Source: Escherichia phage E26
Strand: one strand, 5' to 3'
DNA: 64,000 nucleotides
Sequence record: MN655998.1
How positions within the stretch are numbered: position 1 is the stretch's first letter; each line of letters opens with the position of its first letter. The notes beneath the pieces are model-generated. The model did not search any database. It worked only from the letters and a program-made list of their open reading frames with translations, and had not been told where the DNA came from. Below are positions 3,311-44,434 of the stretch, in pieces. A program made the position numbers and the translations under genes.

Positions 3311-3547
3311 ATGATTAGCTTTAAACGTTTTTTGGTTGAGGCCGCTATTGACGGTTTCATGAGTAAGATTTATTCTTGTAATACTATCGAGGGATTAAAT
3401 GAACTTGAGGCATATTATGAGAAGCGCAAGAAAGAAACAGAATTGAAACCTGCTGATGATATTTCGATCCGTGATGCCATCGCTGGACGCCGTAAGCAAT
3501 TGGAAGCGGACAACGAGCCAGAAGAGGAGCCGGAAGAGGATTTTTAA
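3311..3547 (+). CDS. uvsW.1: UvsW.1-like small acidic protein
   Basis: 78 aa ORF directly after uvsW, acidic C-terminus; synteny. Confidence 0.5.
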   Translation: MISFKRFLVEAAIDGFMSKIYSCNTIEGLNELEAYYEKRKKETELKPADDISIRDAIAGRRKQLEADNEPEEEPEEDF

Positions 3548-12896: not shown

Positions 12897-14948
12897 TTAC
12901 ATTTTAAATTTATCTGGCATTGCGTCTACAGATACCAGATCAGCGATAAGCTGACGTAGAGTTGCCTTATCTGCTTTCTTACGTTCGGTTTTAGCTTCGC
13001 TAATGAAGCTGGAGAAAGACAGGTCAGAAGCAGGTTTAACAACACCTTCACGGATGAATGCATCACCGTCCGCGATCATCTCGCCAGATTCTTGTAATGC
13101 TGCCAGTTCATTTTTGTTCATAATATGTGCCTCAATGTAATAAGTTTCTTGTGAATCCGTCGATGCCGTAGCACGAGTTACCGTATCAAAGGATAACACA
13201 ACACCGCGAGGAAGTAAAATCTCGCATTCTTTGTAAGCAAATGCTTTGTTACCTACTGGCAAGACAGGGATGTTTTCCGCGCCAGCAATGGAGAAAGCAA
13301 CATTAGCGCCACCTTCACCGCGAGAGCCAGCCATAGAATCAACACCAGCAACGGCACTAGCCACGTTTGCATTCCAGCCGCCAAAAATGTTAGGTGCAAG
13401 GGAAGTGCTCACATAGTTTTTAAAGTAAAACGCTTTTTGCTTACGTGCAGTTTCCCACATTTGCGACCGGAAGTCCATACCACGATACAGAATAGTACCC
13501 GGATCAAGTTTAACTCCATAGTTGGAGAAGGCATTATCCAGTGCATCGCACATCTTGACCAATTCTTCTGGATCTGCGATGCCTTCAAACTCTTCCAGCT
13601 TACGATCAGTTAGGAAGTTGTTCATATTGATGTATGCTGCATCGGCATATTCGCTCAATACAAAACCTTCCGCGCCAGGCAGATCAAGATCAATATCTGC
13701 CATCATTTCACCCATGTTGCTAGCAATTGCTTCAAACATACCGGAAGCAACATTACGTAGGGCATCGGTTTTAATCTGTGTGATGTGACTACGCAGCATT
13801 TCAGCTTTTACATCTGCTGGCATAGACTGGTCTACTCGATCCATTGCCAGGGCGGTGATCTTGTTTTCGAATACTTCCTCGCTCATGATTTCTTTTAAGC
13901 GTTTGATTGATGCTGCGATAACTTCCGCAGACAACGGATCATATTGATCCTGAACTTTTACCAGTTCGCTTACTGCGTATTTTGCATCGGCTTCGCTTTC
14001 AAAAATAGTACGCATGAAACCATAGCGAGTGATAATATCACTTGTCCAGTCATTCAGAGAACGGGCGGTTGAACGTTCTAAGGCTTGACGATCAATCAGA
14101 GTATTAAACTGTTTCTTAGGTTCGGCTTCGGTGATATCTTCTTCTGGTTTAAGATTAATTTTTTCTGGATGATTCACGTAGTCGCTGTTATATGTCGCTT
14201 GAGTTTTCAGCATTTCTTCTTTAGTCAAACGAGATTTAGCCGCTACGCGTTGTTCTGCTTCCGCGTTTCGTTCTTCTTCTGACACAAGACTAGCCGCATA
14301 TGCCTCATCTTTAGTCAGAGATTCACCAGTAGCCTTAGATACCCAGCGATCACCTAAATCACTTTCTACTTTAGTGAACAAGGATTCATCAAGTTTAATC
14401 CCTTTAATCTTATCAATCGCCATCCCGCGACGCTTGACAACAACTAAAGCGATCTTTTTGCTGGTCATTACTTCCTGCTGGAATACTTCAAACTTCGGTG
14501 TACGACGCACCAAACGCTCTATAACGCGCTTAACCAGTTCGGTCTTACCTTTCATGCGGGATACGTTAAAACGGAACATAACAGCGTCTAATTGCGCTTT
14601 ACGGGCTGTTTCCATAACCACATCAAAAGCACTTGCCATAACTGCAATCGGGTTATCGCCTAGACCATTTTTAAGCTGTACAATACGACCGCTTTTGTTC
14701 ATTTCGCACAGTACAACATGTGCGGTTTTGTCACCCATACGAATGATTTTAGGTGTTTTGTTGGTGAAGTTACAAAGACGGACAATCACATCTTTATCGC
14801 GTGTCTGTACTGCAAAAAGCTGTTTAGGATTCTGCTTAGGCTTTAAGCACTGTACCGGAGCAATACTGCCAAAGTTTTCTTCCTCTTCCGTCAACAGCCA
14901 TTTCTCGAAAGATTCAATCATTAGATCGTCGATTTCTAAGTTAAACAT
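12897..14948 (-). CDS. alt: Alt ADP-ribosyltransferase (head-packaged, T4 Alt-like)
   Basis: 683 aa; C-terminal LYRGMDF, STS, ECEILLPRG ART motifs; size matches T4 Alt. Confidence 0.8.
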   Translation of the reverse strand: MFNLEIDDLMIESFEKWLLTEEEENFGSIAPVQCLKPKQNPKQLFAVQTRDKDVIVRLCNFTNKTPKIIRMGDKTAHVVLCEMNKSGRIVQLKNGLGDNPIAVMASAFDVVMETARKAQLDAVMFRFNVSRMKGKTELVKRVIERLVRRTPKFEVFQQEVMTSKKIALVVVKRRGMAIDKIKGIKLDESLFTKVESDLGDRWVSKATGESLTKDEAYAASLVSEEERNAEAEQRVAAKSRLTKEEMLKTQATYNSDYVNHPEKINLKPEEDITEAEPKKQFNTLIDRQALERSTARSLNDWTSDIITRYGFMRTIFESEADAKYAVSELVKVQDQYDPLSAEVIAASIKRLKEIMSEEVFENKITALAMDRVDQSMPADVKAEMLRSHITQIKTDALRNVASGMFEAIASNMGEMMADIDLDLPGAEGFVLSEYADAAYINMNNFLTDRKLEEFEGIADPEELVKMCDALDNAFSNYGVKLDPGTILYRGMDFRSQMWETARKQKAFYFKNYVSTSLAPNIFGGWNANVASAVAGVDSMAGSRGEGGANVAFSIAGAENIPVLPVGNKAFAYKECEILLPRGVVLSFDTVTRATASTDSQETYYIEAHIMNKNELAALQESGEMIADGDAFIREGVVKPASDLSFSSFISEAKTERKKADKATLRQLIADLVSVDAMPDKFKM

Positions 14949-15015: not shown

Positions 15016-15228
15016 TTATAATGCACCATCGAGCAATTGCTCTAATGTGTATCCTGAATAGTCTTTTTCAATCAGGATATATTTTCCTACTCGTTTAATA
15101 CAACCGCGCATTTCAACGTATTCTGCGTAGTTGATGGTGCGAGTTGTTCCATCTTCTAGCAAAGCAGTACCGATTTCGTTAATGCGGTCATAAGTTACGT
15201 CGGTAATGATGATTTCGATGTTAGCCAT
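15016..15228 (-). CDS. hypothetical early protein (70 aa)
   Basis: ORF track; RBS AAGGAG; preceded by PeSL promoter. Confidence 0.5.
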   Translation of the reverse strand: MANIEIIITDVTYDRINEIGTALLEDGTTRTINYAEYVEMRGCIKRVGKYILIEKDYSGYTLEQLLDGAL

Positions 15229-17446: not shown

Positions 17447-17614
17447 TTATTTGTTAATTTCCGGTGCGTTGCTTGGATAGTAACCTTCTTTAACTCCGAG
17501 GTATTTCGCAACCATCCCTACAATCTTCTGTGCTACTACAATGTCAAATTTCAGATAATCTTCACCGTAGGTTTCAATGATATATGCTTCACATGCTGCT
17601 TTAGTCTCGAACAT
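17447..17614 (-). CDS. hypothetical 55-aa protein, paralog copy 1 (MFETKAACEAY...YYPSNAPEINK)
   Basis: Hand-translated; near-identical paralog at 20716..20883. Confidence 0.45.
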   Translation of the reverse strand: MFETKAACEAYIIETYGEDYLKFDIVVAQKIVGMVAKYLGVKEGYYPSNAPEINK

Positions 17615-20712: not shown

Positions 20713-20715
20713 TAT

Positions 20716-20883
20716 TATTTGTTAATTTCCGGTGCGTTGCTTGGATAGTAACCTTCTTTAACACCCAGATATTTTGCAACCATTCCGGTGATCTTCTGTG
20801 CTACTACGATATCGAATTTCAGGTAGTCTTCACCGTGGGTTGCTACAATGTATGCTTCGCATTCTGCTTTAGTCTGGAACATT
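20716..20883 (-). CDS. hypothetical 55-aa protein, paralog copy 2 (MFQTKAECEAY...YYPSNAPEINK)
   Basis: Hand-translated; ~85% aa identity to 17447..17614 product. Confidence 0.45.
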
Positions 20884-23324: not shown

Positions 23325-24819
23325 CGAATACCTCTTTTACTGTATTTGCAGTGGTCTTGTCGTAGCGAATACGTTTGATGATTGGGAGAAATAAAGAGAA
23401 CTCCGGTTCATCTTCTTTACGTGATTTGCTGCGGATATACCCGTTGCATGTCATCTCAATGACTTTTCCAATCAGGTTATGACGATCAGCCCATAACATT
23501 TCTCGGTCGAGTTCATTTCTACGATCGAACGGAATTACACGTTCAATACCATCATCACCTTTTTCGGTTGTAGTGTCGGTTAATCCAGATCCGGTGTTAG
23601 TCATCATTCGTCCGCACGCACTACGGACAGTAAAACCGCCTACCTTATTGGGGTCTTTACTATGCGGATATACATCAACAATTTCCGCGTCGAAGTCAAT
23701 CACTTCTTTAAATTTAACCTGATCTTTACTACGGCGATCTTCAAATACACCATGTAAATTTTTAAGGATAATACCTTCTAAGCCCATGTTTACATAGCGA
23801 TGATATACTTCGCGAGCTTCGTCTATATTGTTAACTACAGTGTTTTCGATTATCTGAACACGAGGATCGTTAAGTTCTTCAACAATCTGTTTTAGTTCTT
23901 CGAATCGATCTTTATATTGCTTCGTTGCTTTCTCGTTTCCGTAATACACATCACGGTCGATAACATCCCAGACAGTGTAAACAATACATTGGGCTTCTTC
24001 TTTTGGAATAGTTCCTTTCAGTGATTTGTTGAGGATACCATTTCCGGTCTGACGATCTGCAACAACGGATTCTTTTACTGCTTCCGCTACTGGAGTTAAT
24101 GGCATTTCCTCTTCTTCAAATATCCATGACAGAGTACCATCATAAACGCTCTCAACGAAGTTCTGCGCTGGTGTTTGTGAAAGGGTAGGCATATATACCA
24201 ATTCGCCATCTAGAACAATTCCACGGCCTCGTAGACGCTCTAAAACCGCAAACAAATCATCAAGCCCTTGATAGGTATTACCTGAGCGGGTATAGATTGC
24301 TAATGTTTCCCCGTCAATATCAGCCATACCACGAGCGCCATCGCTTTTAAGTTGTGCATACGCCGGATATTTGATATTGGCAATAGTCTTATCAGAACAT
24401 GACGATGCAAGGTGGCACGGTTGCTGAGGAATCAGTTTCTTCCATACCTTGTTTGCAGTGGTAGCGGAACAGCCGCATTCCAGATCACGATTCAGGACCA
24501 TCATCGCAACTTTAGCATCATCCTCTGACAAGCAAGTCAGAGTATCGGTAACTAGCTGTAATGCTGCATTACCAGTTACTTGACGCGTGGCAAGTTTATT
24601 TTTAAAGACCTGTAATGCACCGGATAAAGACAATACAGACGAATAGCGAGATGGTTTATCGTATTTCTTTACGCCAAACGTAACCTGTTTGCAATATGCC
24701 AGATAAAAGCATTCTTTCAGCGTTTCATTGCTCGCGGATTCTTTCAGGATCTTTTCTTTCAGCGATGTTTTGTCGGTTGCTGCAAGCTGATTAATGATAT
24801 TAAGAATTGACATTTTCAC
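23317..24819 (-). CDS. 30: ATP-dependent DNA ligase gp30
   Basis: 500 aa; adenylation KxDG motif AQLKSDGAR; size and synteny with T4 gp30. Confidence 0.85.
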   Translation of the reverse strand: MKMSILNIINQLAATDKTSLKEKILKESASNETLKECFYLAYCKQVTFGVKKYDKPSRYSSVLSLSGALQVFKNKLATRQVTGNAALQLVTDTLTCLSEDDAKVAMMVLNRDLECGCSATTANKVWKKLIPQQPCHLASSCSDKTIANIKYPAYAQLKSDGARGMADIDGETLAIYTRSGNTYQGLDDLFAVLERLRGRGIVLDGELVYMPTLSQTPAQNFVESVYDGTLSWIFEEEEMPLTPVAEAVKESVVADRQTGNGILNKSLKGTIPKEEAQCIVYTVWDVIDRDVYYGNEKATKQYKDRFEELKQIVEELNDPRVQIIENTVVNNIDEAREVYHRYVNMGLEGIILKNLHGVFEDRRSKDQVKFKEVIDFDAEIVDVYPHSKDPNKVGGFTVRSACGRMMTNTGSGLTDTTTEKGDDGIERVIPFDRRNELDREMLWADRHNLIGKVIEMTCNGYIRSKSRKEDEPEFSLFLPIIKRIRYDKTTANTVKEVFDV

Positions 24820-34485: not shown

Positions 34486-36729
34486 TTACAGCTTGCAAGA
34501 TGAGCACTCGCTAGCGTCTTCCGTACCATCTGCACCATCACGCACGTTAGCGTAATACAGTGTCTTGAGGCCGTAATATTGAGCAAACAACATATCATCT
34601 AATACATCAGCAATATCGACTTTACCAGTCTTATAAGTGCTTGGATCGTAGGATGTGTTGGAACTAATCGCCTGATCTACAAACTTCTGCATGATCGCTG
34701 CCAGTGTCAGATAAGGCTTGTTACCTTTCTTGATCAGTGTCCAAAGCAGGTCAATAACATCAGCATTATTCTCTACGTTCGGAATAACCTGATTAAATTG
34801 CCCTTCTTTCGATCCTTTAACCGATACAATCCCGCGAGGCGGTTCAATACCGTTTGTGCTGTTAGACACCTGAGAAGACGACTCACAAGGCATCAGAGCC
34901 GAAAGCGTACTGTTACGAATGCCATATTTTTTCAGGTCTTCGCGCAGTTCTTCCCAATCCATCTCATACACCGGATCAACCAGTTCATCTACTGTCTTTT
35001 TGTACCAGTCAATAGGAAGTTCACCGCGACCATAACGTGTTTCGTGCATCAGTTCGCAAGCGCCCTTCTCTTTAGCCAGTTGCACACTAGCTTTAATCAG
35101 AGCATATTGCAAGCGTTCAAACGTTTTATGCGTAAACTCGTTAGCGTCTTCATATGTGAAGAAATTATCCGCAAGATATGATGCAAAGTTAGTCACGCCA
35201 ACACCCAGAGAGCGACGTTTTTTGGCTGTCAGAGCTTGTTCTACTGGATAATCCTGGTAATCTAACAAGTTGTCAAGCGCACGCACCATAACCATAGCAA
35301 TGCGTTCTACTTCTTCCATGTTTTCGATATCGAAATTACCTAAAACATATGCTGCCAAAGTGCATAGACTGATCTCTGAATCATCACGACCCATCGGTTT
35401 TGTCGGCAGAGCAATTTCACAACACAGGTTAGATTGTTTAATCGGTGCTACATTACGAATAAACGCCCCGTGATTGTTCATGTTGTCTGTGAACGCTGGA
35501 TAGATTCGACCAGTGTTAAAACGTTCAATTGCCACCGCTAAAAACAGGTCTTCGGCTTTAACACGAGTTTTACGAACACTCGGATCTTTTTCCAGTTTTT
35601 CGTAAAGCTGACGGAATCCTTCCTCATCTCGGAAGTACAGATCCCACAACAAGCCACCCGCAACATCTGGACTAAACAGAGTAATGTAATCCCGTTTAAG
35701 GAATCGCTCTACCATCAGGTTATTAATCTGTACGCCGTAATCAAGATGACGAATGCGGTTATCTTCTACCCCTTTGTTGTTCTTCAACACAATAAGACTT
35801 TCAAACTCTAAATGCCACATTGGGTAATAGAGAGTCGCCGCTCCGCCACGAATACCGCCTTGCGAGCATGACTTAACAGCAGTCTGAAAATGTTTCCAGA
35901 ATGGGATAACGCCAGTATGACGAACTTCACCATGTCCGATCTTAGATCCTTCCGCGCGAATCATACCAGCATTGATACCGATACCAGCACGCTTACTAAT
36001 ATACTTGATGATTGCATTTGCTGTTTCATTGATGCCCTGCAATGAGTCATCACTTTCAATCACCACACACGAACTAAATTGTCGTGTTGGAGTACGCACA
36101 CCCGCCATAATCGGAGTAGGCAGAGAAATTTGCTTATTCGCAACAGCATTATAAAAATCAATCACATGTTCAAGTCGATTTTCTGTCTCTTCTTGATGTA
36201 AGCACATACCGATCAGCATATAAGCAAATTGCGGTGTTTCAATGATTTTCTTAGTGCTGCGATCCTGAACAAGATATTTCTCTTTTAACTGCATCGCACC
36301 AGCGTAGGTCATTTTAAAATCAAGTTTATGATCGATGAATTTCTCCAGATATTCCACTTCTTCACGGGAATACTTTTGCAGAATTTCGCGATCATATTTT
36401 CCGGTTGCAATATTACGCTCAATATGGCTATAAAAATCAATCGGTTGGAATTGACCGTATACTGATTTACGAAGCGCGAACATTGCAAGGTTACTTGCTA
36501 CATATTGATAATCAGGTGTTTCTACAGTAATGTTATCTGCGGCGACCTTAATCAATACTTTCTGGATATCATTGGTAGACATACCTTCTGTCAGAAGTGG
36601 TTCAACCATATCAAACAATTCATATGGATCAACGTTATGACCTTCGGCTGCCGCTTCCAGAATTTTCATTACTTTTTCTTTTTCAAACGGAACAGTCAGA
36701 CCGGAAGACTTAACAACATTTTTAATCAT
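34486..36729 (-). CDS. nrdA: ribonucleotide reductase large (alpha) subunit
   Basis: 747 aa; N-terminal ATP-cone, catalytic Cys motifs, C-terminal CxxC tail. Confidence 0.9.
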   Translation of the reverse strand: MIKNVVKSSGLTVPFEKEKVMKILEAAAEGHNVDPYELFDMVEPLLTEGMSTNDIQKVLIKVAADNITVETPDYQYVASNLAMFALRKSVYGQFQPIDFYSHIERNIATGKYDREILQKYSREEVEYLEKFIDHKLDFKMTYAGAMQLKEKYLVQDRSTKKIIETPQFAYMLIGMCLHQEETENRLEHVIDFYNAVANKQISLPTPIMAGVRTPTRQFSSCVVIESDDSLQGINETANAIIKYISKRAGIGINAGMIRAEGSKIGHGEVRHTGVIPFWKHFQTAVKSCSQGGIRGGAATLYYPMWHLEFESLIVLKNNKGVEDNRIRHLDYGVQINNLMVERFLKRDYITLFSPDVAGGLLWDLYFRDEEGFRQLYEKLEKDPSVRKTRVKAEDLFLAVAIERFNTGRIYPAFTDNMNNHGAFIRNVAPIKQSNLCCEIALPTKPMGRDDSEISLCTLAAYVLGNFDIENMEEVERIAMVMVRALDNLLDYQDYPVEQALTAKKRRSLGVGVTNFASYLADNFFTYEDANEFTHKTFERLQYALIKASVQLAKEKGACELMHETRYGRGELPIDWYKKTVDELVDPVYEMDWEELREDLKKYGIRNSTLSALMPCESSSQVSNSTNGIEPPRGIVSVKGSKEGQFNQVIPNVENNADVIDLLWTLIKKGNKPYLTLAAIMQKFVDQAISSNTSYDPSTYKTGKVDIADVLDDMLFAQYYGLKTLYYANVRDGADGTEDASECSSCKL

Positions 36730-36740
36730 ATTACCTCACT

Positions 36741-37043
36741 TCATATATCAAGCGTATTTTCTGGAGTATCGCCGAAAACTCTATTAACGAGATCCGCCAA
36801 TACTTCACCGTGGCATTTCTTAGGGTAGCAAGTACAACCTAAGCGCATATGTCTTAATACTTCTAAATGCGCTCGTGTTATCTCACCATTTCGAATCTTA
36901 TTATACAACCACTCTTTGTATAATGCAATAGCTTTCTCGCGTCCGTATTCTTTGGCGGTGTATGGATTTCCCCACATAGTACCACGCTGAATATTAACAT
37001 CAAAATCGCTATTGTACTTGTTTACAACGCGGCATATTTTCAT
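36741..37043 (-). CDS. DUF4326-like protein with C-terminal ...ENTLDI tail
   Basis: WGNPYT ... LGCTCYPKKCHGEVL pattern; C-terminal motif shared with gp33-like protein. Confidence 0.4.
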   Translation of the reverse strand: MKICRVVNKYNSDFDVNIQRGTMWGNPYTAKEYGREKAIALYKEWLYNKIRNGEITRAHLEVLRHMRLGCTCYPKKCHGEVLADLVNRVFGDTPENTLDI

Positions 37044-37078
37044 TTGATACTCCTGGCGGGGATTTCTCCCCGCCTTTG

Positions 37079-38299
37079 TTAGACTGCCATTTGAGCGGTG
37101 ATCGCTGGATGGCTTTGATAGTTGTGAATTTTAAAGTCTTTCGGAGTTTTTGTCAATACCTCCTCTAAAGATTTAAATTCCGGCAACTCAATTGTTGGTT
37201 TATCAAACGGAACACGGTTTAATTGCTCCATAACTTGATCAAAATGGTTTTTGTAAATGTGAGTATCTCCACCAGAGAAAATCAGTTCTCCTACCTCAAG
37301 ATCACACATTTTCGCTATGATGTGAGTTAACAGCGCATAGCTGGCGACGTTAAAGGGCAAGCCCAAAAAGCTGTCTACGCTTCGCTGAAACCACATACAA
37401 GACAGTTTACCTTCATTGACGTAGAATTGCACGAAAGGATGACATACACCTAATACAGCATTATGTGTTCCTTGTACGTTCCATGAGTCAATAATGATCC
37501 GGCGATCCGTTGGATTGTTTTTAATTTGTTCAATCACGTTTTGTAACTGGTCTTCCCAAATCTTCGGGCGATAGACATATTCTTCATCGTCTTTAGTGCT
37601 TGATGTGTCTACGTCCATACTAACAAACATCGTGGTATCCGGTGCTAAAATGTCGCCACCCAGATAATCACTATCAAGCAGATAATCGAAATAACCACTA
37701 TCTACCCATTCCTGGAATCCCCACAAGCAATATGCATCATTAACAAAATTAGATTGAGTCTTCCAGTGGTCTGCTACCAGAATACAATCAAACTCTTCAT
37801 AAATCATACCACGCCAGATAGCACATAAACGGTCTTCTGTTTCATTGGTTGGCGTAAAGTCTTCTACCCACGGGTGTTTAAATGTATGTGTATATTTGCT
37901 CTTAACACGCTTAATTTTGATCTCACCGTGTGGATGAATCGGTTTGCGTCGCCATGCCATGCCATACATATTCCCAACATTATAACCATTGAATCGCAAA
38001 GGATTCTTTTCTTTCATATCAAGACAGTTGCCGCGCCAAATGTCGAAGGCTTCTTCGTCAAACTTACCGCGTGTAATTTCCTGTAAGCGACGGCGGTCAA
38101 GTGATCCCTCCATAAACCATAGCAATTCGCCAATTACAGAGGCTGTAGCCATCTTTTTAGTGGTAAGTAAGGGGAAACCCTTGCTTAAGTCAATTCGCAT
38201 TTCTGTACCGAATTTAGAGAGCGTACCTACCCCAGTTCGGTCGTCACGAGGCCAACCATTATCAAGAACATCACGCAATAGTTTCAAATATTCTTTCAT
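37079..38299 (-). CDS. td: thymidylate synthase with ~110-aa internal insertion
   Basis: ThyA motifs DDRTGVGT, ELLWF, PTDRRIIIDSWN, CHPFVQFYV, DSFLGLPFNVASYALL; uninterrupted 406-aa ORF. Confidence 0.8.
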   Translation of the reverse strand: MKEYLKLLRDVLDNGWPRDDRTGVGTLSKFGTEMRIDLSKGFPLLTTKKMATASVIGELLWFMEGSLDRRRLQEITRGKFDEEAFDIWRGNCLDMKEKNPLRFNGYNVGNMYGMAWRRKPIHPHGEIKIKRVKSKYTHTFKHPWVEDFTPTNETEDRLCAIWRGMIYEEFDCILVADHWKTQSNFVNDAYCLWGFQEWVDSGYFDYLLDSDYLGGDILAPDTTMFVSMDVDTSSTKDDEEYVYRPKIWEDQLQNVIEQIKNNPTDRRIIIDSWNVQGTHNAVLGVCHPFVQFYVNEGKLSCMWFQRSVDSFLGLPFNVASYALLTHIIAKMCDLEVGELIFSGGDTHIYKNHFDQVMEQLNRVPFDKPTIELPEFKSLEEVLTKTPKDFKIHNYQSHPAITAQMAV

Positions 38300-38633
38300 C
38301 CCACATCACCTTTTTCTTGTTGATTGCTTTCTTACGCAGTTTTGCTACTGTCTCGTCAATATCGATAAAGACAACGCCACGGTCGAATACAGTTGCAGGT
38401 CTTGAGATATCGCTATTTTCTTGCACAGGAAGCCATGATGCGCTCGCTTCATCATAGAGATATTGTAAACCGTAATAATCTACGGCTACTGCGTAGTTTT
38501 CACTGGTAGCTGACCATAATTGAATAATACCGACTTTCATTATTGTTCCCGTCCGCAATGTAAGCACCGGACTACCAGCAAACATCAAAGATTCACCACA
38601 ATGTTTGCACTCATAATCTGTCAGAATTTTCAT
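38271..38633 (-). CDS. hypothetical protein (120 aa)
   Basis: ORF track. Confidence 0.4.
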   Translation of the reverse strand: MKILTDYECKHCGESLMFAGSPVLTLRTGTIMKVGIIQLWSATSENYAVAVDYYGLQYLYDEASASWLPVQENSDISRPATVFDRGVVFIDIDETVAKLRKKAINKKKVMWDERIFETIA

Positions 38634-38634
38634 G

Positions 38635-39216
38635 TTACGCCTTCTTACGTTCTAAAATTTGTTCGCTGATCAGGTAATCATCAAGGAAGTAATTATGTTC
38701 TTCTTTTGTTGCAAAGTCAAAATATAATTCCTGAATCATTTCCTTAGAGATACCAACATCATATTCAAATGGATCGTTGATCCCTGAACGTTGAACATAC
38801 GTTAACACAATACGGTCCGCAAAGTCAACTGCTTTTTCAATCAGGGAAGGTCCACCGATAACGCTTACCATACCTTGCAATTTCTCTATGACTTCCAATA
38901 AATCCTTCAAACCACCATCATTAGTAATCGCGGTATACACATCAGGATGTTCGCCGTTTTTTGCTTTCGGTGCTGGCTTACTGGTATCGGTGCTAACAAC
39001 CACATTCACACGACCTTCCAGTGCTTTAGGGAGACTTTCAAAGGTATTACGTCCCATTACAACCGCCGCAAGATCAACATCTCCCATAGTGCGCATTTTA
39101 AAGTTTTCCATGTCCTTTTTGATTGGACGTCCCCACGGTAAGCCGCCTTTAAAACCAAACGCCCAATTTTCATCCGACATTTTAGTGTCACCAATCGCAA
39201 ATACACATTGAATCAT
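38635..39216 (-). CDS. frd: dihydrofolate reductase (start at MIQCVFAIG)
   Basis: FGFKGGLPW, GRNTFESLP, VIGGPSL DHFR motifs. Confidence 0.8.
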   Translation of the reverse strand: MIQCVFAIGDTKMSDENWAFGFKGGLPWGRPIKKDMENFKMRTMGDVDLAAVVMGRNTFESLPKALEGRVNVVVSTDTSKPAPKAKNGEHPDVYTAITNDGGLKDLLEVIEKLQGMVSVIGGPSLIEKAVDFADRIVLTYVQRSGINDPFEYDVGISKEMIQELYFDFATKEEHNYFLDDYLISEQILERKKA

Positions 39217-39230
39217 AATATAATCTCCTG

Positions 39231-39560
39231 TCAAATCAGTTTAAAGAAGTTTTCGTTTACATTTTCTTCGGTGATTGCTGTCTTAAATTCTTGACCGTTA
39301 TCCGGTGTGATGAAATAACGGTCAGAATAATCACGAAAACGTTTTAAGTGAGATAACCCAACATTAACACCATTTTCCCAAAAACGAAAGGTAATCATTT
39401 TTGGTTCATATCGATAGTCGCTGGTTAACACAGTACCATCACCGCGACGGGCTTCATAAACCGTAATACATTCACGATTAGCGGCTTTAAGGCATTCTTC
39501 AATAGTGCCACACGAGATAATACTTACTTTTTCATCTACGATTTGCTCTACAGTCCACAT
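39231..39560 (-). CDS. hypothetical protein (109 aa)
   Basis: ORF track. Confidence 0.45.
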   Translation of the reverse strand: MWTVEQIVDEKVSIISCGTIEECLKAANRECITVYEARRGDGTVLTSDYRYEPKMITFRFWENGVNVGLSHLKRFRDYSDRYFITPDNGQEFKTAITEENVNENFFKLI

Positions 39561-39615
39561 AATATAATCCTCTCTTCGTTTCGATGTTTGTATTATACAT
39601 CATCTGTGTTCGGCG

Positions 39616-39945
39616 TCAACCTTTTTGTTCCATGAAAAGCGGTGCTGTTTCTTCTTTCAGTTTAATAACTAGCGCGGAAACTTCATCAAGAAAATCTTTT
39701 TCCATATGAGCAAGCATTGATTTAGAATCTTTGATGACTTTCAAAGAATATTCACTTAGATTTCCGTTTCCTAACAATAATGCAGGATACACACTATGTG
39801 GGATCTCGATTTCATGATATTCGCTCATAGTATAATATTTGTGAATTTTTAAATCTATATTTCTTCGTTGTACGTCCACATCAGCAATGACATACAGAAG
39901 TTCGATTTTATCGCTTTTCTGGGAAAGGGTAGCATTCAAAAACAT
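39616..39945 (-). CDS. hypothetical protein (109 aa)
   Basis: ORF track; RBS GGAGGAT. Confidence 0.45.
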   Translation of the reverse strand: MFLNATLSQKSDKIELLYVIADVDVQRRNIDLKIHKYYTMSEYHEIEIPHSVYPALLLGNGNLSEYSLKVIKDSKSMLAHMEKDFLDEVSALVIKLKEETAPLFMEQKG

Positions 39946-39974
39946 TGTTAATCCTCCATTGTTTCGATGTGTGC

Positions 39975-40002
39975 ATTATACATTACCACATAAGCATGTC
40001 AA
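39975..40002 (-). promoter_or_regulatory. early promoter (TTGACA-16-TATAAT)
   Basis: Consensus hexamers upstream of 39616 gene. Confidence 0.5.
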
Positions 40003-40025
40003 CATCTTTTCATAAATTTTTAGGC

Positions 40026-40056
40026 AATAAAAAAGCCTCCCCGAAGGAAGGCTTTA
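40026..40056 (-). terminator. intrinsic terminator downstream of gene 32 (stem AGCCTTCC/GGAGGCT, T-run)
   Basis: Hairpin followed by TTTTTTATT on minus strand. Confidence 0.55.
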
Positions 40057-40063
40057 AAATTCA

Positions 40064-41038
40064 TTACATCCCTAACAGAGCGTCAAGATCATCCAGATCA
40101 GAAGCGGAGGAAGTACCGCCACCCAGGTCCAGAGATGCCATCAGGTCATCAGCGGAAGAATCTAACGCCGTGCTAGCTGCGTTAATACCAACTACAGTGC
40201 TAGCTGCGGTCATACCAGAATCGAATGCATTCATCTGTGCGTCAAAATCGTCAAGCTGGCTGTTAATCGCTGCCGCAGCACTGGAAGCCGCAGCACCAGC
40301 TACCATAGAAACGCCCATAGTTTTCTTAAATTTGGTTTCCAGTTCATCGAACGGTTTAAACTGGCTAGGCGCTACAATCTCACTCAGATCAACCATGTTT
40401 TCCATCAGATATTTCTGATATGCTTCGTCTTCAATTTTCGGAAGCTGTGATTGCTGCATGAAACGAGAATCATCATAGTTCTGGTGTTTATCAACCTTCT
40501 TAGCTTTCAGGAGGAAGTTAGCACCGGAGAACACACAAGTTACATCTACCGGAACTTCGCCCATATCGGTATTCACGTTCACCATCGCAACGATCTTATC
40601 ATAAATTTTCTGACCGAAGCGGAATTTGAATACCTTACCTTCGTTTTCTGGTGCTTGAGGATCTTTCAGTACCAGAATATTTGCGTAGTAAGACGCTTTA
40701 CGTTTAATCAGTTGCCATTCGGTTTTATCGGTATTGTACAGATCTTTTTCGTTAATATATTTGCACACCGGGCAAGAATCAAAATCACCGTGGGTGCTGG
40801 AGCAGTTTTCCCAATACCATTTTCCATTAACTTTGAAGGAATGGTTTACCAGTTTCACAATCGGCAGACCGTCTTCTGTCTTAGACGGCAGGAAGCGAAT
40901 CAGGGCTTCACCGTTACCCGCTGCATCAGTCTTAATCTTCCACTCTTTCGGATCTTCTTTGGAGAAACCGTTGCCACCTTTCAGTGCGGCCAGTTGAGCT
41001 TGCAGTTTGGAGCTATCTTGACGTTTAAACATATTCAC
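40064..41038 (-). CDS. 32: single-stranded DNA-binding protein gp32
   Basis: 324 aa; IRFLPSK, NGKWY...CSSTHGD, CPVCKYI zinc motif, acidic C-terminal tail. Confidence 0.9.
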
Positions 41039-41085
41039 TATTCCTTCTTTTGATTAATTTACTAGACTATTATACAGATTTAAAT

Positions 41086-41679
41086 TTACTTGTCAAATAC
41101 TTTATTAATTATATCTAACAACTTTGGTTTTCTATTTTCAAATTCTAACATTTCTTCGGGAGAAATGTCAACTACTTCTGTTTTATGAAAGAAATCAGGA
41201 TCTATTGCATCGGCAACAAAGTTTCTAGCTAACGCAGCGGCCTTTTCGTAATCATAAAGACCTAGATACAAAAGTTTCCCTCTATCAACCTGAATACATG
41301 CTTTATATTTACCATCTCGTTTATAAAAACTTACTCCGATATACTCAGACGTCTTACCTTTTTGCTTTCCAACATTTCTTGAGTTTTGTTGGTCGGTCGC
41401 ATCTCTCAAGTTTTCAATCCGATTATCGGTTATAACTCTGTTTACATGGTCAACACATTTTGGCATATATCCATGATGCATGAAGAAAATTATTCTATGC
41501 TCTTTGTGCAATCGACCATCAAACTTAACTACTCTATATCCAGTTCTTGGATTTACATAGCCCGCTCTAGATCCGACTTTATGCTTTCGGTTTGTCGATA
41601 TCTTGCGAATCAGCTTACCGTTATCATATTTAAAGAGTTCATGACAACGAGCATACAATTCAGGGTCATATGTTTTCAC
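41086..41679 (-). CDS. HNH homing endonuclease with AP2-like DNA-binding domain
   Basis: HNH core DHVNRVITDNRIENL; YIGVSFYKRDGKYKA AP2-like; occupies the 32/59 junction where T4 carries segG. Confidence 0.65.
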   Translation of the reverse strand: MKTYDPELYARCHELFKYDNGKLIRKISTNRKHKVGSRAGYVNPRTGYRVVKFDGRLHKEHRIIFFMHHGYMPKCVDHVNRVITDNRIENLRDATDQQNSRNVGKQKGKTSEYIGVSFYKRDGKYKACIQVDRGKLLYLGLYDYEKAAALARNFVADAIDPDFFHKTEVVDISPEEMLEFENRKPKLLDIINKVFDK

Positions 41680-42343
41680 CTTTTAACCTCGATATTTCTT
41701 TACACTCTTTAACTACTTTAACAAATAATGCTCTTGCTTTTGCGGCGTCAATAACAAGTAGTTTCTTGTACGCCTTCATTTTAACACTATAAGTTTGCCA
41801 AATCAAGTCTTTGGCTACCTTGTCGTGTTCGTCGATTATATTTAGAAAGCTATCTAACAACATAAACGACTCAAACGATATAATCCGATTTTGCAGTAGT
41901 TTAAAGATACCGCTTGTTTCGGTTGCGGGATTGTATGTAATTAGCTCTTTAAGAGTAACCCCGCGTTTCTCGGAGAAGTATACCAGACTTTTAATGTCAT
42001 CGTCAAATCGTGTTGCTGCATCGGTTATCTTTCCTATGTATTCCATATAAAAGCCGTATGCGTCAACATCAGTGATTTCACCTACCCATGCATCGGTATT
42101 GGCTACCAGATTGCTTAGGAATAGGAAGTATAATTCTCTTAGATTGTACTTTTCCGCTAATTTTGCGAAATAATACTTATCTCTGCGTTTATTGAATGCG
42201 GCATCAGACAACCGCATCCTCCAATTGTATTTTACGCAATCATAACGCCCGTTCATATGAGCTTTCATCATGCAATATAACATATACACAGATTTAGCAT
42301 TAATTCGCATATCTGGATCTGGAGGAAGACGGTTTCTGATCAT
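41666..42343 (-). CDS. 59: helicase loader gp59
   Basis: 225 aa; KSVYMLYCMMKAHMNGRYD, YNWRMRLSDAAFNKRRDKYYF, IFKLLQNRIISFESFMLLDSFLNIID match T4 gp59. Confidence 0.85.
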   Translation of the reverse strand: MIRNRLPPDPDMRINAKSVYMLYCMMKAHMNGRYDCVKYNWRMRLSDAAFNKRRDKYYFAKLAEKYNLRELYFLFLSNLVANTDAWVGEITDVDAYGFYMEYIGKITDAATRFDDDIKSLVYFSEKRGVTLKELITYNPATETSGIFKLLQNRIISFESFMLLDSFLNIIDEHDKVAKDLIWQTYSVKMKAYKKLLVIDAAKARALFVKVVKECKEISRLKGENI

Positions 42344-42352
42344 ACATACCCC

Positions 42353-42622
42353 TTAAATATCGAGAGTGTTGGTCGGTTCGTCGATCACTCCCTTCCTGAG
42401 CGTTCTATTTACTATACATTCTTGTGTGATCTTGTCAATAATGGACACCGGAATATACTTCTGATAGTGACCATATTCTATAGAGTTTTCCTCTACAAAC
42501 TGAGTGGTCGCTTCAAGATAAGTCAATCCCTCTTCAACAACCAGTTTTTCGATTGCAAGACCGTTTGCTGTTTTGTTCGCGGCTTTTACCGCATGTTCAT
42601 TAAGCATTGAACACCCGATCAT
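42353..42622 (-). CDS. 33: gp33-like late transcription co-activator (position-based), C-terminal ...PTNTLDI tail
   Basis: Position 59-33-dsbA-rnh as in T4; C-terminal hydrophobic tail resembling clamp-binding motifs. Confidence 0.35.
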   Translation of the reverse strand: MIGCSMLNEHAVKAANKTANGLAIEKLVVEEGLTYLEATTQFVEENSIEYGHYQKYIPVSIIDKITQECIVNRTLRKGVIDEPTNTLDI

Positions 42623-42875
42623 AGAGTTCTACTGCTTCATCGCGTTCTGCTTCGAAGGTTTCGCGCTGTTGCTGGTGATACAGTTTAAACAGAATGCCCC
42701 ACATTTTACCATCTACGCCTAATTCTTCTTTAGCACGCTGTTTGATCTCTTTGATCTTATCGCCATATGCTTCTTGAATGGTTTTCTGATCGCTGGCTTC
42801 TTTAATCAGTTGTGCCAGGGTATTTCCGTGCACTGCTTCGTCAAATACTACTTTTTCTTTTTTCTGTTCAGTCAT
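42600..42875 (-). CDS. dsbA: DsbA-like dsDNA-binding protein (position-based)
   Basis: 91 aa, synteny only. Confidence 0.3.
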   Translation of the reverse strand: MTEQKKEKVVFDEAVHGNTLAQLIKEASDQKTIQEAYGDKIKEIKQRAKEELGVDGKMWGILFKLYHQQQRETFEAERDEAVELYDRVFNA

Positions 42876-42879
42876 AATA

Positions 42880-43476
42880 TTAACCCTCTTTAGTCATTAA
42901 TTGAAAACCACGTTCAGCTTTTGAAATTTCGCTAGGACTTAAATCGTCACCAACATATTCTAGCATCATTTCTCGGATAATGTCAAGTGCTTTTTCATCA
43001 CCTGATTTTAACTCGAACTCAAGTTCATAGTGAGCCTCTCCCATTCTTTCGCCGACTTTACAATAATAGAAAGTGTCTTTGCACATTTCCACTATAGCAC
43101 ACTCAAAGTCAAGTGTCAATGACTTGCGGTATGTCATTACTTGCAATAAAGGAACGATAAGGTCGGAGTTTACGCCTAGACTATCAACATAGTGATAGAA
43201 ATCATCCGTTGTTGAAAAAGTAATTTCTTCTCGGTTGAATAGTCCAGATTCACTATCACCTATTTTGACCATGATCAATGATCTGTTAACGTCAAGTCGA
43301 GCATAAATTCCTTTTCGACGCAGTGCATGATCTTCGGTATCATAATAAAATTCGTGTTTTAATATGTTATATCGATCGACGAGATTGTACCCGTCATACA
43401 TTGCTACCCACAAATCACAGATGGTTTCGACGCCAATTGGTGATTGTGCATAGTATTTTAATTCAAGTTCTTTCAT
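42880..43476 (-). CDS. CYTH / triphosphate-tunnel-metalloenzyme-like protein
   Basis: N-terminal ELELK (ExExK) box, central RRKGIYAR, C-terminal YELEFELK (ExExE); 198 aa; no counterpart at this locus in T4. Confidence 0.5.
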   Translation of the reverse strand: MKELELKYYAQSPIGVETICDLWVAMYDGYNLVDRYNILKHEFYYDTEDHALRRKGIYARLDVNRSLIMVKIGDSESGLFNREEITFSTTDDFYHYVDSLGVNSDLIVPLLQVMTYRKSLTLDFECAIVEMCKDTFYYCKVGERMGEAHYELEFELKSGDEKALDIIREMMLEYVGDDLSPSEISKAERGFQLMTKEG

Positions 43477-43486
43477 ATGTCAACCC

Positions 43487-44434
43487 TTAGAACTCACCAA
43501 TTTTCTGCAACATTTTAACTAACGCATTTGTTACAAAATAGTTATAAATTTTACCGCGTGGTGCTGGTTTAGATTTTTCCCATGCTAACAAAATTTCATA
43601 TTCGATGTTATCAGGAATAAATTCAAAATCAATAAGTTCGCGGTTTTCGTCAAAGCGTCGTGCTTCTTCCTCTGTCATCAAAGACTTTGGATCTTCGGCA
43701 TCGAAAATTTGCTCTAACCATTTGGTTGCAATTGGTTTAGCTCGTTCACCTTCCAGCCGTGAGATAATGAAATCACTACGGCACTTGATAGAAGCTACAC
43801 CGTCTTTTGCGTCACCCTTAACACATTTTACCATAAGGTCTTTGTAAGGACTACCATATTTGCATTTCTTCCATGCTTTCTGTACTGGTGCCCACTGTTT
43901 CACATTTTTGTATTTGTGCAACTGTGTGTAGTCACCATCGCCGGAGTTGATTAGCACCTGGCGACCTTCTACAGAAAACTTTTTAGTTAATACAGCGATT
44001 ATATCATCTGCTTCAACTTTGTCAACCTTAATAACGTGATAAGGCATGTTCTCTTTAAACTCTTCGGTGATCTTATTGATCGCAGCAAAGATCATCTCCC
44101 AATCACGCGGATCTGCGTCTCGTTTTTCCTTACGGTTGCGTTTATAGTAAGATGCGATATCACGTCGCCAGTAACCTTTGCTTGAATCAAAGGCAAGTAC
44201 CGTAATTGGGTATTGCTCTTTGAATTTTGTCATATTATAACGCATGGTGTCAAGGATAAGATGACGGATCATGCCTTCATTAATAGGATCTTCCGGTTTA
44301 AAGGTATGCGAGATAGTAGCAATCATAAGCTGCGACATATCAATCAAATGCACACCGTCCGGTAGTTTATCTTCTGGATCATCGAAGAAATCATTAAGTG
44401 TAGCGGTAGTTTTTGTAAACGGGTTATAAGTCAT
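43487..44434 (-). CDS. rnh: RNase H / FEN-like 5'-3' exonuclease
   Basis: 315 aa; IDMSQLMIATI, VLAFDSS, INSGDGDYTQL acidic-cluster motifs as in T4 RNase H. Confidence 0.85.
   Translation of the reverse strand: MTYNPFTKTTATLNDFFDDPEDKLPDGVHLIDMSQLMIATISHTFKPEDPINEGMIRHLILDTMRYNMTKFKEQYPITVLAFDSSKGYWRRDIASYYKRNRKEKRDADPRDWEMIFAAINKITEEFKENMPYHVIKVDKVEADDIIAVLTKKFSVEGRQVLINSGDGDYTQLHKYKNVKQWAPVQKAWKKCKYGSPYKDLMVKCVKGDAKDGVASIKCRSDFIISRLEGERAKPIATKWLEQIFDAEDPKSLMTEEEARRFDENRELIDFEFIPDNIEYEILLAWEKSKPAPRGKIYNYFVTNALVKMLQKIGEF

Follow-up and report, generated by a model that had tools for sequence, protein, structure and literature searches.

Why should two small proteins with unrelated bodies end in the same five amino acids? 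The question is raised by a stretch of 64,000 nucleotides from Escherichia phage E26 (sequence record MN655998.1), which was analysed at its full length and is called the window here. A preliminary description had pointed to a DUF4326-like protein and to the protein at the position of gene 33 (gp33). It had proposed that both dock on the gp45 sliding clamp through a shared C-terminal tail. The DUF4326 protein is the homologue of T4 NrdA.1, a name that is used in the annotation of phage 133. We consider, with a probability of about one half, that its C-terminal tail is a docking peptide for gp45. NrdA.1 would then be a new candidate clamp client.

With megablast, positions 36000..44000 of the window have 57 full-length relatives, all of them RB49-like T4-type phages of the genus Krischvirus. 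The closest is Escherichia phage Ec_Makalu_002, with 94.7% identity.

The shared C-terminal end

The list of open reading frames (ORFs) contains both genes where they had been placed, at 36741..37043 and at 42353..42622. The strand needed correction: both are on the minus strand, and the plus-strand translations are full of stops. The DUF4326 protein has 100 amino acids and ends in ...VNRVFGDTPENTLDI. The gp33 ORF has 89 amino acids counted from the first ATG and ends in ...RKGVIDEPTNTLDI; the start annotated in its relatives corresponds to window position 42607 and gives 84 amino acids. Placed side by side, the tails TPENTLDI (DUF4326 protein) and EPTNTLDI (gp33) follow the pattern P-x-N-T-L-D-I. 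The last five residues, NTLDI, are identical (36744..36758 and 42356..42370, minus strand). The tails share a proline at position -7 and differ at position -6 (E/T). The seven-residue identity that had been reported is thus a match of six in seven.

At the DNA level the two ends differ. The NTLDI codons are AAT ACG CTT GAT ATA in one gene and AAC ACT CTC GAT ATT in the other, with a different third base in four of the five. The codons just before them show no relation, and the genes stop with TGA and TAA, respectively. Because codons and stops differ, the identity is at the protein level and does not come from copied DNA.

We estimated the chance expectation in a set of 272 greedy ORFs, a near-complete Krischvirus proteome that was taken from the window plus positions 1..100000 (100 kb) of Ec_Makalu_002. 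The number of pairs expected to share the last five residues by chance is 0.033, and only 3.75% of composition-matched random proteomes have at least one such pair. For NTLDI in particular, the expected number of other proteins with this end is 2.3e-4. Four pairs were observed. The DUF4326 protein and gp33 are one of them. Another consists of two paralogous ORFs of 55 amino acids, MFETKAAC... and MFQTKAEC... (17447..17614 and 20715..20882, minus strand), which both end in GVKEGYYPSNAPEINK. A third joins UvsW.1 (78 amino acids, 3311..3547, plus strand) with an unrelated hydrophobic ORF (L002, 42045..42353, minus strand); their common acidic end, PEEDF, is probably compositional. The fourth pair is formed by the gp43 DNA polymerase (...ASLTDLFDI) and a DNA methyltransferase of 279 amino acids (...GTLSDLFDI).

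The shared end is therefore not random, and yet tails of the type [ST]-L-[DE] occur elsewhere in both families, so that the naive figure overstates how improbable the exact identity is. The resemblance of the DUF4326 and gp33 tails at the family level still needs an explanation.

The gp33 tail as a probable clamp hook

The assignment of the second protein to gp33, the late-transcription co-activator, was borne out. The ORF matches the Pfam family PF16805 (Trans_coact) with an E-value of 1.8e-26 (92 bits, cut-off 25). It aligns with T4 gp33 in PDB 3tbi_A (phmmer, E-value 3.4e-16) through ...E-K-T-N-T-L-D, and also with T4 gp33 in 7d7d_K. The orthologue in Ec_Makalu_002 is annotated "late promoter transcription accessory protein". 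The gene stands where it does in T4, as the order rnh-dsbA-33-59-32 is retained.

In T4, residues 106-112 of gp33 (NTLDFLL) are a published sliding-clamp-binding motif, given beside gp55 PSLDFLYE and DNA ligase EGLDFLFD (PMC7892883, Suppl. Table 2). The clamp motifs of gp33, gp55 and gp43 are interchangeable, and the activation of late transcription requires the binding of gp33 to the clamp (PMC2988020). The clamp tail of gp33 is, then, already known T4 biology. The tail of the window gp33, an orthologue (DEPTNTLDI, 42356..42382, minus strand), aligns with this motif residue for residue through TNTLD. Likewise, it is C-terminal and follows a short linker. It is shorter than NTLDFLL: in NTLDI, the L-D pair remains and a single I stands in for F-L-L. 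By this alignment, the Krischvirus gp33 tail is a truncated orthologue of the known clamp hook, with LDI for LDFLL. Krischvirus gp33 would use NTLDI to bind gp45. For gp33, the clamp-binding tail that had been proposed is supported through homology to the T4 experiments; for the DUF4326 protein it is plausible, short of proof.

The NrdA.1 protein and its predicted flexible end

The DUF4326 assignment also held. The ORF lies at the nrdA.1 position, between td and nrdA, and matches Pfam PF14216 over residues 4-83 (E-value 6.5e-23, 81.6 bits, cut-off 25) as well as phrog_464. Residues C70, C72, C77, H78 and G79 are invariant across 56 sequences. With this C-x-C...C-H-G cluster, the window protein is a clear member of the family. 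Ec_Makalu_002 encodes an identical protein (100%).

The AlphaFold2 model, made with 56 homologues, has a mean predicted local distance difference test score (pLDDT) of 87.9, and its last helix spans residues 78-90. Residues 91-100, GDTPENTLDI (36744..36773, minus strand), are predicted as coil beyond the Pfam domain, with a mean pLDDT of 70 vs about 90 for the domain. Judged by the model, the tail would have the placement expected of a clamp-client motif, on a flexible terminus outside the folded domain. It reproduces N-T-L-D and the terminal hydrophobic residue of the T4 gp33 motif. However, LDFL is the core that has been published, with three consecutive hydrophobics in the gp45 pocket, and both Krischvirus tails end at LDI without F-L-L.

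In the mechanism that we favour, the last residues of gp33, NTLDI, would be the sliding-clamp hook, shortened from that of T4. NrdA.1 would combine a folded DUF4326 domain with a flexible ten-residue tail that has the same end. This tail would act as a short linear docking motif on gp45. As a possible side effect, NrdA.1 may compete with gp33, gp55 and gp43 for clamp sites.

Published predictions make DUF4326 an enzymatic domain within the rhodanese-phosphatase superfamily. Others predict, from domain fusions, an enzyme that processes nucleotides or ADP-ribose phosphates. A published context analysis ties the domain to replication and to restriction-modification components (PMC7824862). We found no connection to the clamp in the literature that mentions DUF4326 or nrdA.1, and the candidate link between NrdA.1 and gp45 was not found there.

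Only 6 of the roughly 58 Krischvirus records contain the gene. It is thus accessory, and most Krischvirus genomes are without it. It is absent in the RB49 species of Krischvirus (window 36730..37078 vs phage kvi, L055, 731..798). Phage kvi has a 68-bp spacer between td and nrdA in its place, and its gp33 tail is identical to that of the window although the DUF4326 gene is missing. The kvi spacer ends in ...AAAATATGAAGTGAGG, which resembles the 5' end of the DUF4326 gene, ATGAAAATATG, fused to its 3' ATATGA. This structure suggests a deletion of the gene at a short repeat. The sequence upstream of the spacer also differs between kvi and the window.

Conservation, motif similarity and co-variation of the tails

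The comparison covered 55 close homologues out of a large protein collection, 45 loci on viral and metagenome contigs, and a selection of GenBank phages. The Krischvirus-like clade (68-98% identity) has the ends PENTLDI, AENILDMI, VNNELDI, QENTLNI, PPNVLDI and INNELAI, with the C-terminal pattern N-x-L-x-I. The residues N at -5, L at -3 and I at -1 are retained among clade members with 70-79% overall identity. Most other T4-type NrdA.1 tails read F-[ST]-[LIV]-E-D-[LI], followed by C-x in some; T4-like loci have FQVEDLCN. Further lineages show NILEEFYESN (phage 133), ILDNFFED (L010), NLLDLMK (LPCS28), NKLDI (JC221), PSLDKLFGI (P0072) and RSLDML (P0093). In phage 133, this tail occurs beside its own gp43 SLADMFDFF and gp55 SLSFLFEEE, and L-E-E-F-Y-E of NrdA.1 parallels L-A-D-M-F-D of gp43.

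There are orthologues with quite different ends, namely DKIYL, SIL and DDDNFLNI. From these alignments, the T4-type NrdA.1 tail is conserved as a motif class, with exceptions. As to the loss in orthologues that the preliminary description had considered, the class of tail is kept among T4-type orthologues, and the exact sequence is not. The ends are unrelated in the DUF4326 proteins of one Ackermannviridae phage and one N4-like phage and in most of the 150 distant representatives, and no clamp-like tail was found there. Most members of the family lack such a tail or are fusions with other domains. Among DUF4326 proteins, the T4-type NrdA.1 clade alone has the acidic/hydrophobic tail.

We scored the tails by their best local similarity (BLOSUM62) to 15 clamp motifs of non-Krischvirus phages, against 267 background tails. 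One of the reference motifs was KKASLFDMFDF of RB69 gp43. The window NrdA.1 tail ranks 3 of 268, and the majority tail is in the top 2-5%. At or above the 90th percentile of the background are 51% of the T4-type NrdA.1 tails vs 13% of the distant DUF4326 representatives, an enrichment that overstates the independent observations because the 55 close homologues are mutually related. The second-highest background score belongs to the hypothetical protein Makalu002_112 (108 amino acids; L018 6849..7175, minus strand, outside the window), which ends in NLDFLKTVSF and has an LDFL core near its C-terminus. A 70-amino-acid ORF of the window (phrog_10679, 15016..15228, minus strand) ends in YTLEQLLDGAL. 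It resembles gp55 SLDQFYEIEN and the gp33 end NTLEDLL of some phages, and its similarity score is merely moderate.

The most powerful computational test would be co-variation between NrdA.1 and gp33 tails, and this is weak. It is seen only in the Krischvirus lineage, and loosely in L041 and L046, where TMLEDI occurs with gp33 NTLEDLL. Locus L015 pairs gp33 NTLDI with NrdA.1 NILDMI, and locus L013 pairs gp33 VILDI with NrdA.1 PLDIIEVMND. Some gp33 tails, such as NTLEDLL and STLEDFM, fit the majority NrdA.1 pattern, which supports a common partner.

Other clamp motifs, known and putative, and a methyltransferase with a polymerase-type tail

The T4 ligase motif 229-EGLDFLFD-236 was shown to bind gp45, and in the solved complex Leu231 and the consecutive Phe233, Leu234 and Phe235 occupy the gp45 pocket (PMC6212786). 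Since this complex uses a leucine plus three consecutive hydrophobics, the LDI form with two hydrophobic residues is unusual. The gp33 of this phage likewise carries only the minimal form.

In Krischvirus, gp43 ends in ASLTDLFDI and gp55 in PSLDQFYEIEN. An internal loop of DNA ligase gp30, GTLSWIFEEEE (residues 228-238; 24106..24138, minus strand), aligns with ...GLDFLFD... of T4 ligase in 6dt1_A. We infer that this loop corresponds, in Krischvirus, to the gp45-binding motif of T4 ligase. Near the N-terminus of RNase H, ATLNDFFDD (residues 11-19; 44378..44404, minus strand) bears a resemblance to clamp motifs. Read together, these two segments would give the clamp motif a Krischvirus form of its own, [ST]-L-x-x-hydrophobic-F-acid.

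The gp45 clients share an architecture with NrdA.1. The gp43 and gp55 C-termini, the T4 ligase loop EGLDFLFD (PDB 6DRT) and the proposed RNase H N-terminus are likewise short acidic/hydrophobic peptides on a flexible segment of an unrelated domain. However, these clients act directly on DNA or on RNA polymerase, and NrdA.1, a small domain that is predicted to process nucleotides or ADP-ribose, has no known activity on DNA. A similar toolbelt logic holds for cellular clamps, where diverse enzymes gain a short clamp-docking peptide, such as the PIP-box of the PCNA clients DNMT1 and FEN1 or the bacterial beta-clamp motif QL[SD]LF. The phage motif differs from these in its consensus, in its clamp (the gp45 trimer) and in the conformation of the peptide.

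The methyltransferase of the fourth pair is encoded outside the window, at positions 75135..75974 of Ec_Makalu_002 (L018 25135..25974, plus strand), and is annotated as "release factor glutamine methyltransferase". The protein has an NPPF motif and matches phrog_3820 (DNA methyltransferase) over residues 1-250. Behind this part comes a low-complexity acidic linker that leads to the end GTLSDLFDI, an arrangement that would be expected of a clamp client. The end DLFDI is common with gp43, and the codons are mostly different. The protein is full length in 58 records of the Krischvirus group at 90% identity or more. In a relative from Klebsiella phage HMGUkp1 the linker and hydrophobic tail are different, and the homologue of Aeromonas phage 65 has none. 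A literature search for clamp motifs on T4-like methyltransferases found none. Judged from its end, the methyltransferase is likely tethered to the clamp. DNMT1 on PCNA offers a parallel for a Krischvirus DNA methyltransferase with a polymerase-type tail. Such a protein supports the view that putative clamp tails are portable among the accessory enzymes of this lineage.

Weighing the explanations

Several further points weigh against docking of the NrdA.1 tail on gp45. NTLDI has just two hydrophobic residues, L and I. It falls outside the motif definition of a leucine, an acidic residue and then two or three consecutive hydrophobics (LDFL[LFY] or L-x-D-M-F), and the Krischvirus ligase (LSWIF), gp43 (LTDLF) and gp55 (LDQFY) retain fuller motifs. 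The T4 NrdA.1 tail, FQVEDLCN, is a poor clamp motif and reaches only the top 12-15% of the ranking. Some orthologue tails (DKIYL, DDDNFLNI, PLDIIEVMND) are unlike clamp motifs, and the last of these is an outlier within the Krischvirus-like clade itself. The majority tail, SLEDL, also resembles the gp32 C-terminus GLDDLL. Finally, in the 45 loci, phage 133 and JC221, the tails of NrdA.1 and gp33 do not strictly co-vary. Locus L014 has NrdA.1 NVLDI with gp33 NTLEFLM. Phage JC221 has NrdA.1 NKLDI with gp33 STLEDFM and gp43 SLNDLFGDW. The T4-likes have FSLEDL or FQVEDLCN with gp33 NTLDFLL.

The tail may instead dock on another partner, its identity with gp33 being a convergence in a common acidic/hydrophobic sequence space. 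Candidates are a reader of the acidic/hydrophobic C-terminus of gp32, the single-strand-binding protein, or a nucleotide-metabolism enzyme encoded nearby, such as NrdA, Td or another part of the complex that synthesises deoxynucleoside triphosphates (dNTPs). The DUF4326 gene always adjoins nrdA or nrdB, the majority pattern [ST]-L-E-D-L is close to the gp32 tails GLDDLLAGL and DLDDLLNDL, and the NrdA.1 tail is conserved while gp33 tails vary independently; the modest rank of the T4 tail points the same way. Nevertheless, the exact match within Krischvirus is with gp33 and not with gp32, and no evidence specific to any such partner was found. In class Ia reductases, the one peptide known to dock on NrdA is the NrdB tail. 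It is likewise an acidic/hydrophobic C-terminal peptide from the same gene cluster, docking from R2 on R1, but its sequence differs from the NrdA.1 tails. The window NrdB ends in DDDYNRFGKYL and that of T4-likes in DVDxxVLxxFRKYL, unlike NTLDI or SLEDL, and the NrdB tail is at the bottom of the clamp-motif ranking. We rejected a mimic of the NrdB tail on this basis, and we regard a partner other than gp45 as possible but doubtful. The tail may also have no shared function at all. The C-terminus of NrdA.1 would then be weakly constrained or structural, and the match with gp33 a coincidence eased by [ST]-L-[DE] near both ends. Just five residues are involved, several orthologues end differently, the gene is dispensable, and a pLDDT of 50-70 is no proof of disorder. 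Pure coincidence is nevertheless unlikely. It has to contend with the low chance expectations given above (2.3e-4 for NTLDI and 0.033 for any pair), with a second such pair in the same proteome (gp43 and the methyltransferase), with the three positions kept in clade members of 70-79% identity, and with a likeness to clamp motifs that is enriched in T4-type tails and not in distant family members. A recent copy of the gp33 3' end, by recombination or gene conversion, that persists by descent alone is very improbable. The genes are 5.3 kb apart on the same strand, which would ease it, but the codon comparison led us to reject a duplication of the tail DNA. In addition, the clade relative at L014 keeps N-x-L-D-I in NrdA.1 while its gp33 tail differs.

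What clamp docking by NrdA.1 would mean

Docking on gp45 remains the reading that we prefer. As a tentative extension, NrdA.1 could be an unrecognised passenger of the T4-type sliding clamp that places nucleotide or ADP-ribose processing at replication forks. It could possibly form a physical link between the dNTP enzymes encoded near it and the replisome, as one of several portable clamp tails that would be carried by NrdA.1, by the DNA methyltransferase and possibly by the 70-amino-acid ORF. If true, the Krischvirus clamp toolbelt would be larger than the known gp43, gp44/62, gp33, gp55, gp30 and RNase H. A non-DNA enzyme would join it, encoded beside the reductase and thymidylate synthase genes. 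This touches an old question, the coupling of T4 deoxynucleotide synthesis to the replication fork. If its tail binds gp45, DUF4326 would gain a testable handle, being a widespread domain of unknown function tied to replication and to NAD/ADP-ribose conflict systems. The methyltransferase with a polymerase tail suggests that the scanning of C-termini is a cheap route to T4-type clamp clients.

Gene order and neighbouring features

The gene block around both ORFs is entirely on the minus strand and keeps the T4 order. It runs from nrdA (34486..36729) through the DUF4326 gene to td (37079..38299) and gene 32 (40064..41038), with frd between the last two. Gene 59 (41666..42343) and gene 33 follow, then dsbA and a CYTH protein, and then rnh (43487..44434). 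The gp45 gene is outside the window. Genes 32 and 59 are separated by an ORF for an HNH-type endonuclease (41086..41679), which overlaps the end of gene 59. This ORF seems to be among the segments missing from those Krischvirus relatives in which only 89-93% of the region is covered.

The thymidylate synthase ORF, td, encodes 406 amino acids, and the relatives L013 and L015 have 401-412. It is long compared with T4 Td, which has about 286 amino acids. At L014 the td ORF is broken into pieces of 186 and 94 amino acids. Between the td stop and the DUF4326 start there is a GC-rich hairpin, GGCGGGG-loop-CCCCGCC (37055..37074), which lacks a T-run on the coding strand. Within the 3' end of td (37128..37156), the minus strand carries a sigma-70-like site, TTGACA-17-TAAAAT, that matches at 11 of 12 positions.

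The window that carries the DUF4326 gene also encodes an Alt-like ADP-ribosyltransferase (phrog_802, 12897..14948, minus strand). As the literature predicts ADP-ribose derivatives as DUF4326 substrates, a functional link between the two proteins is possible.

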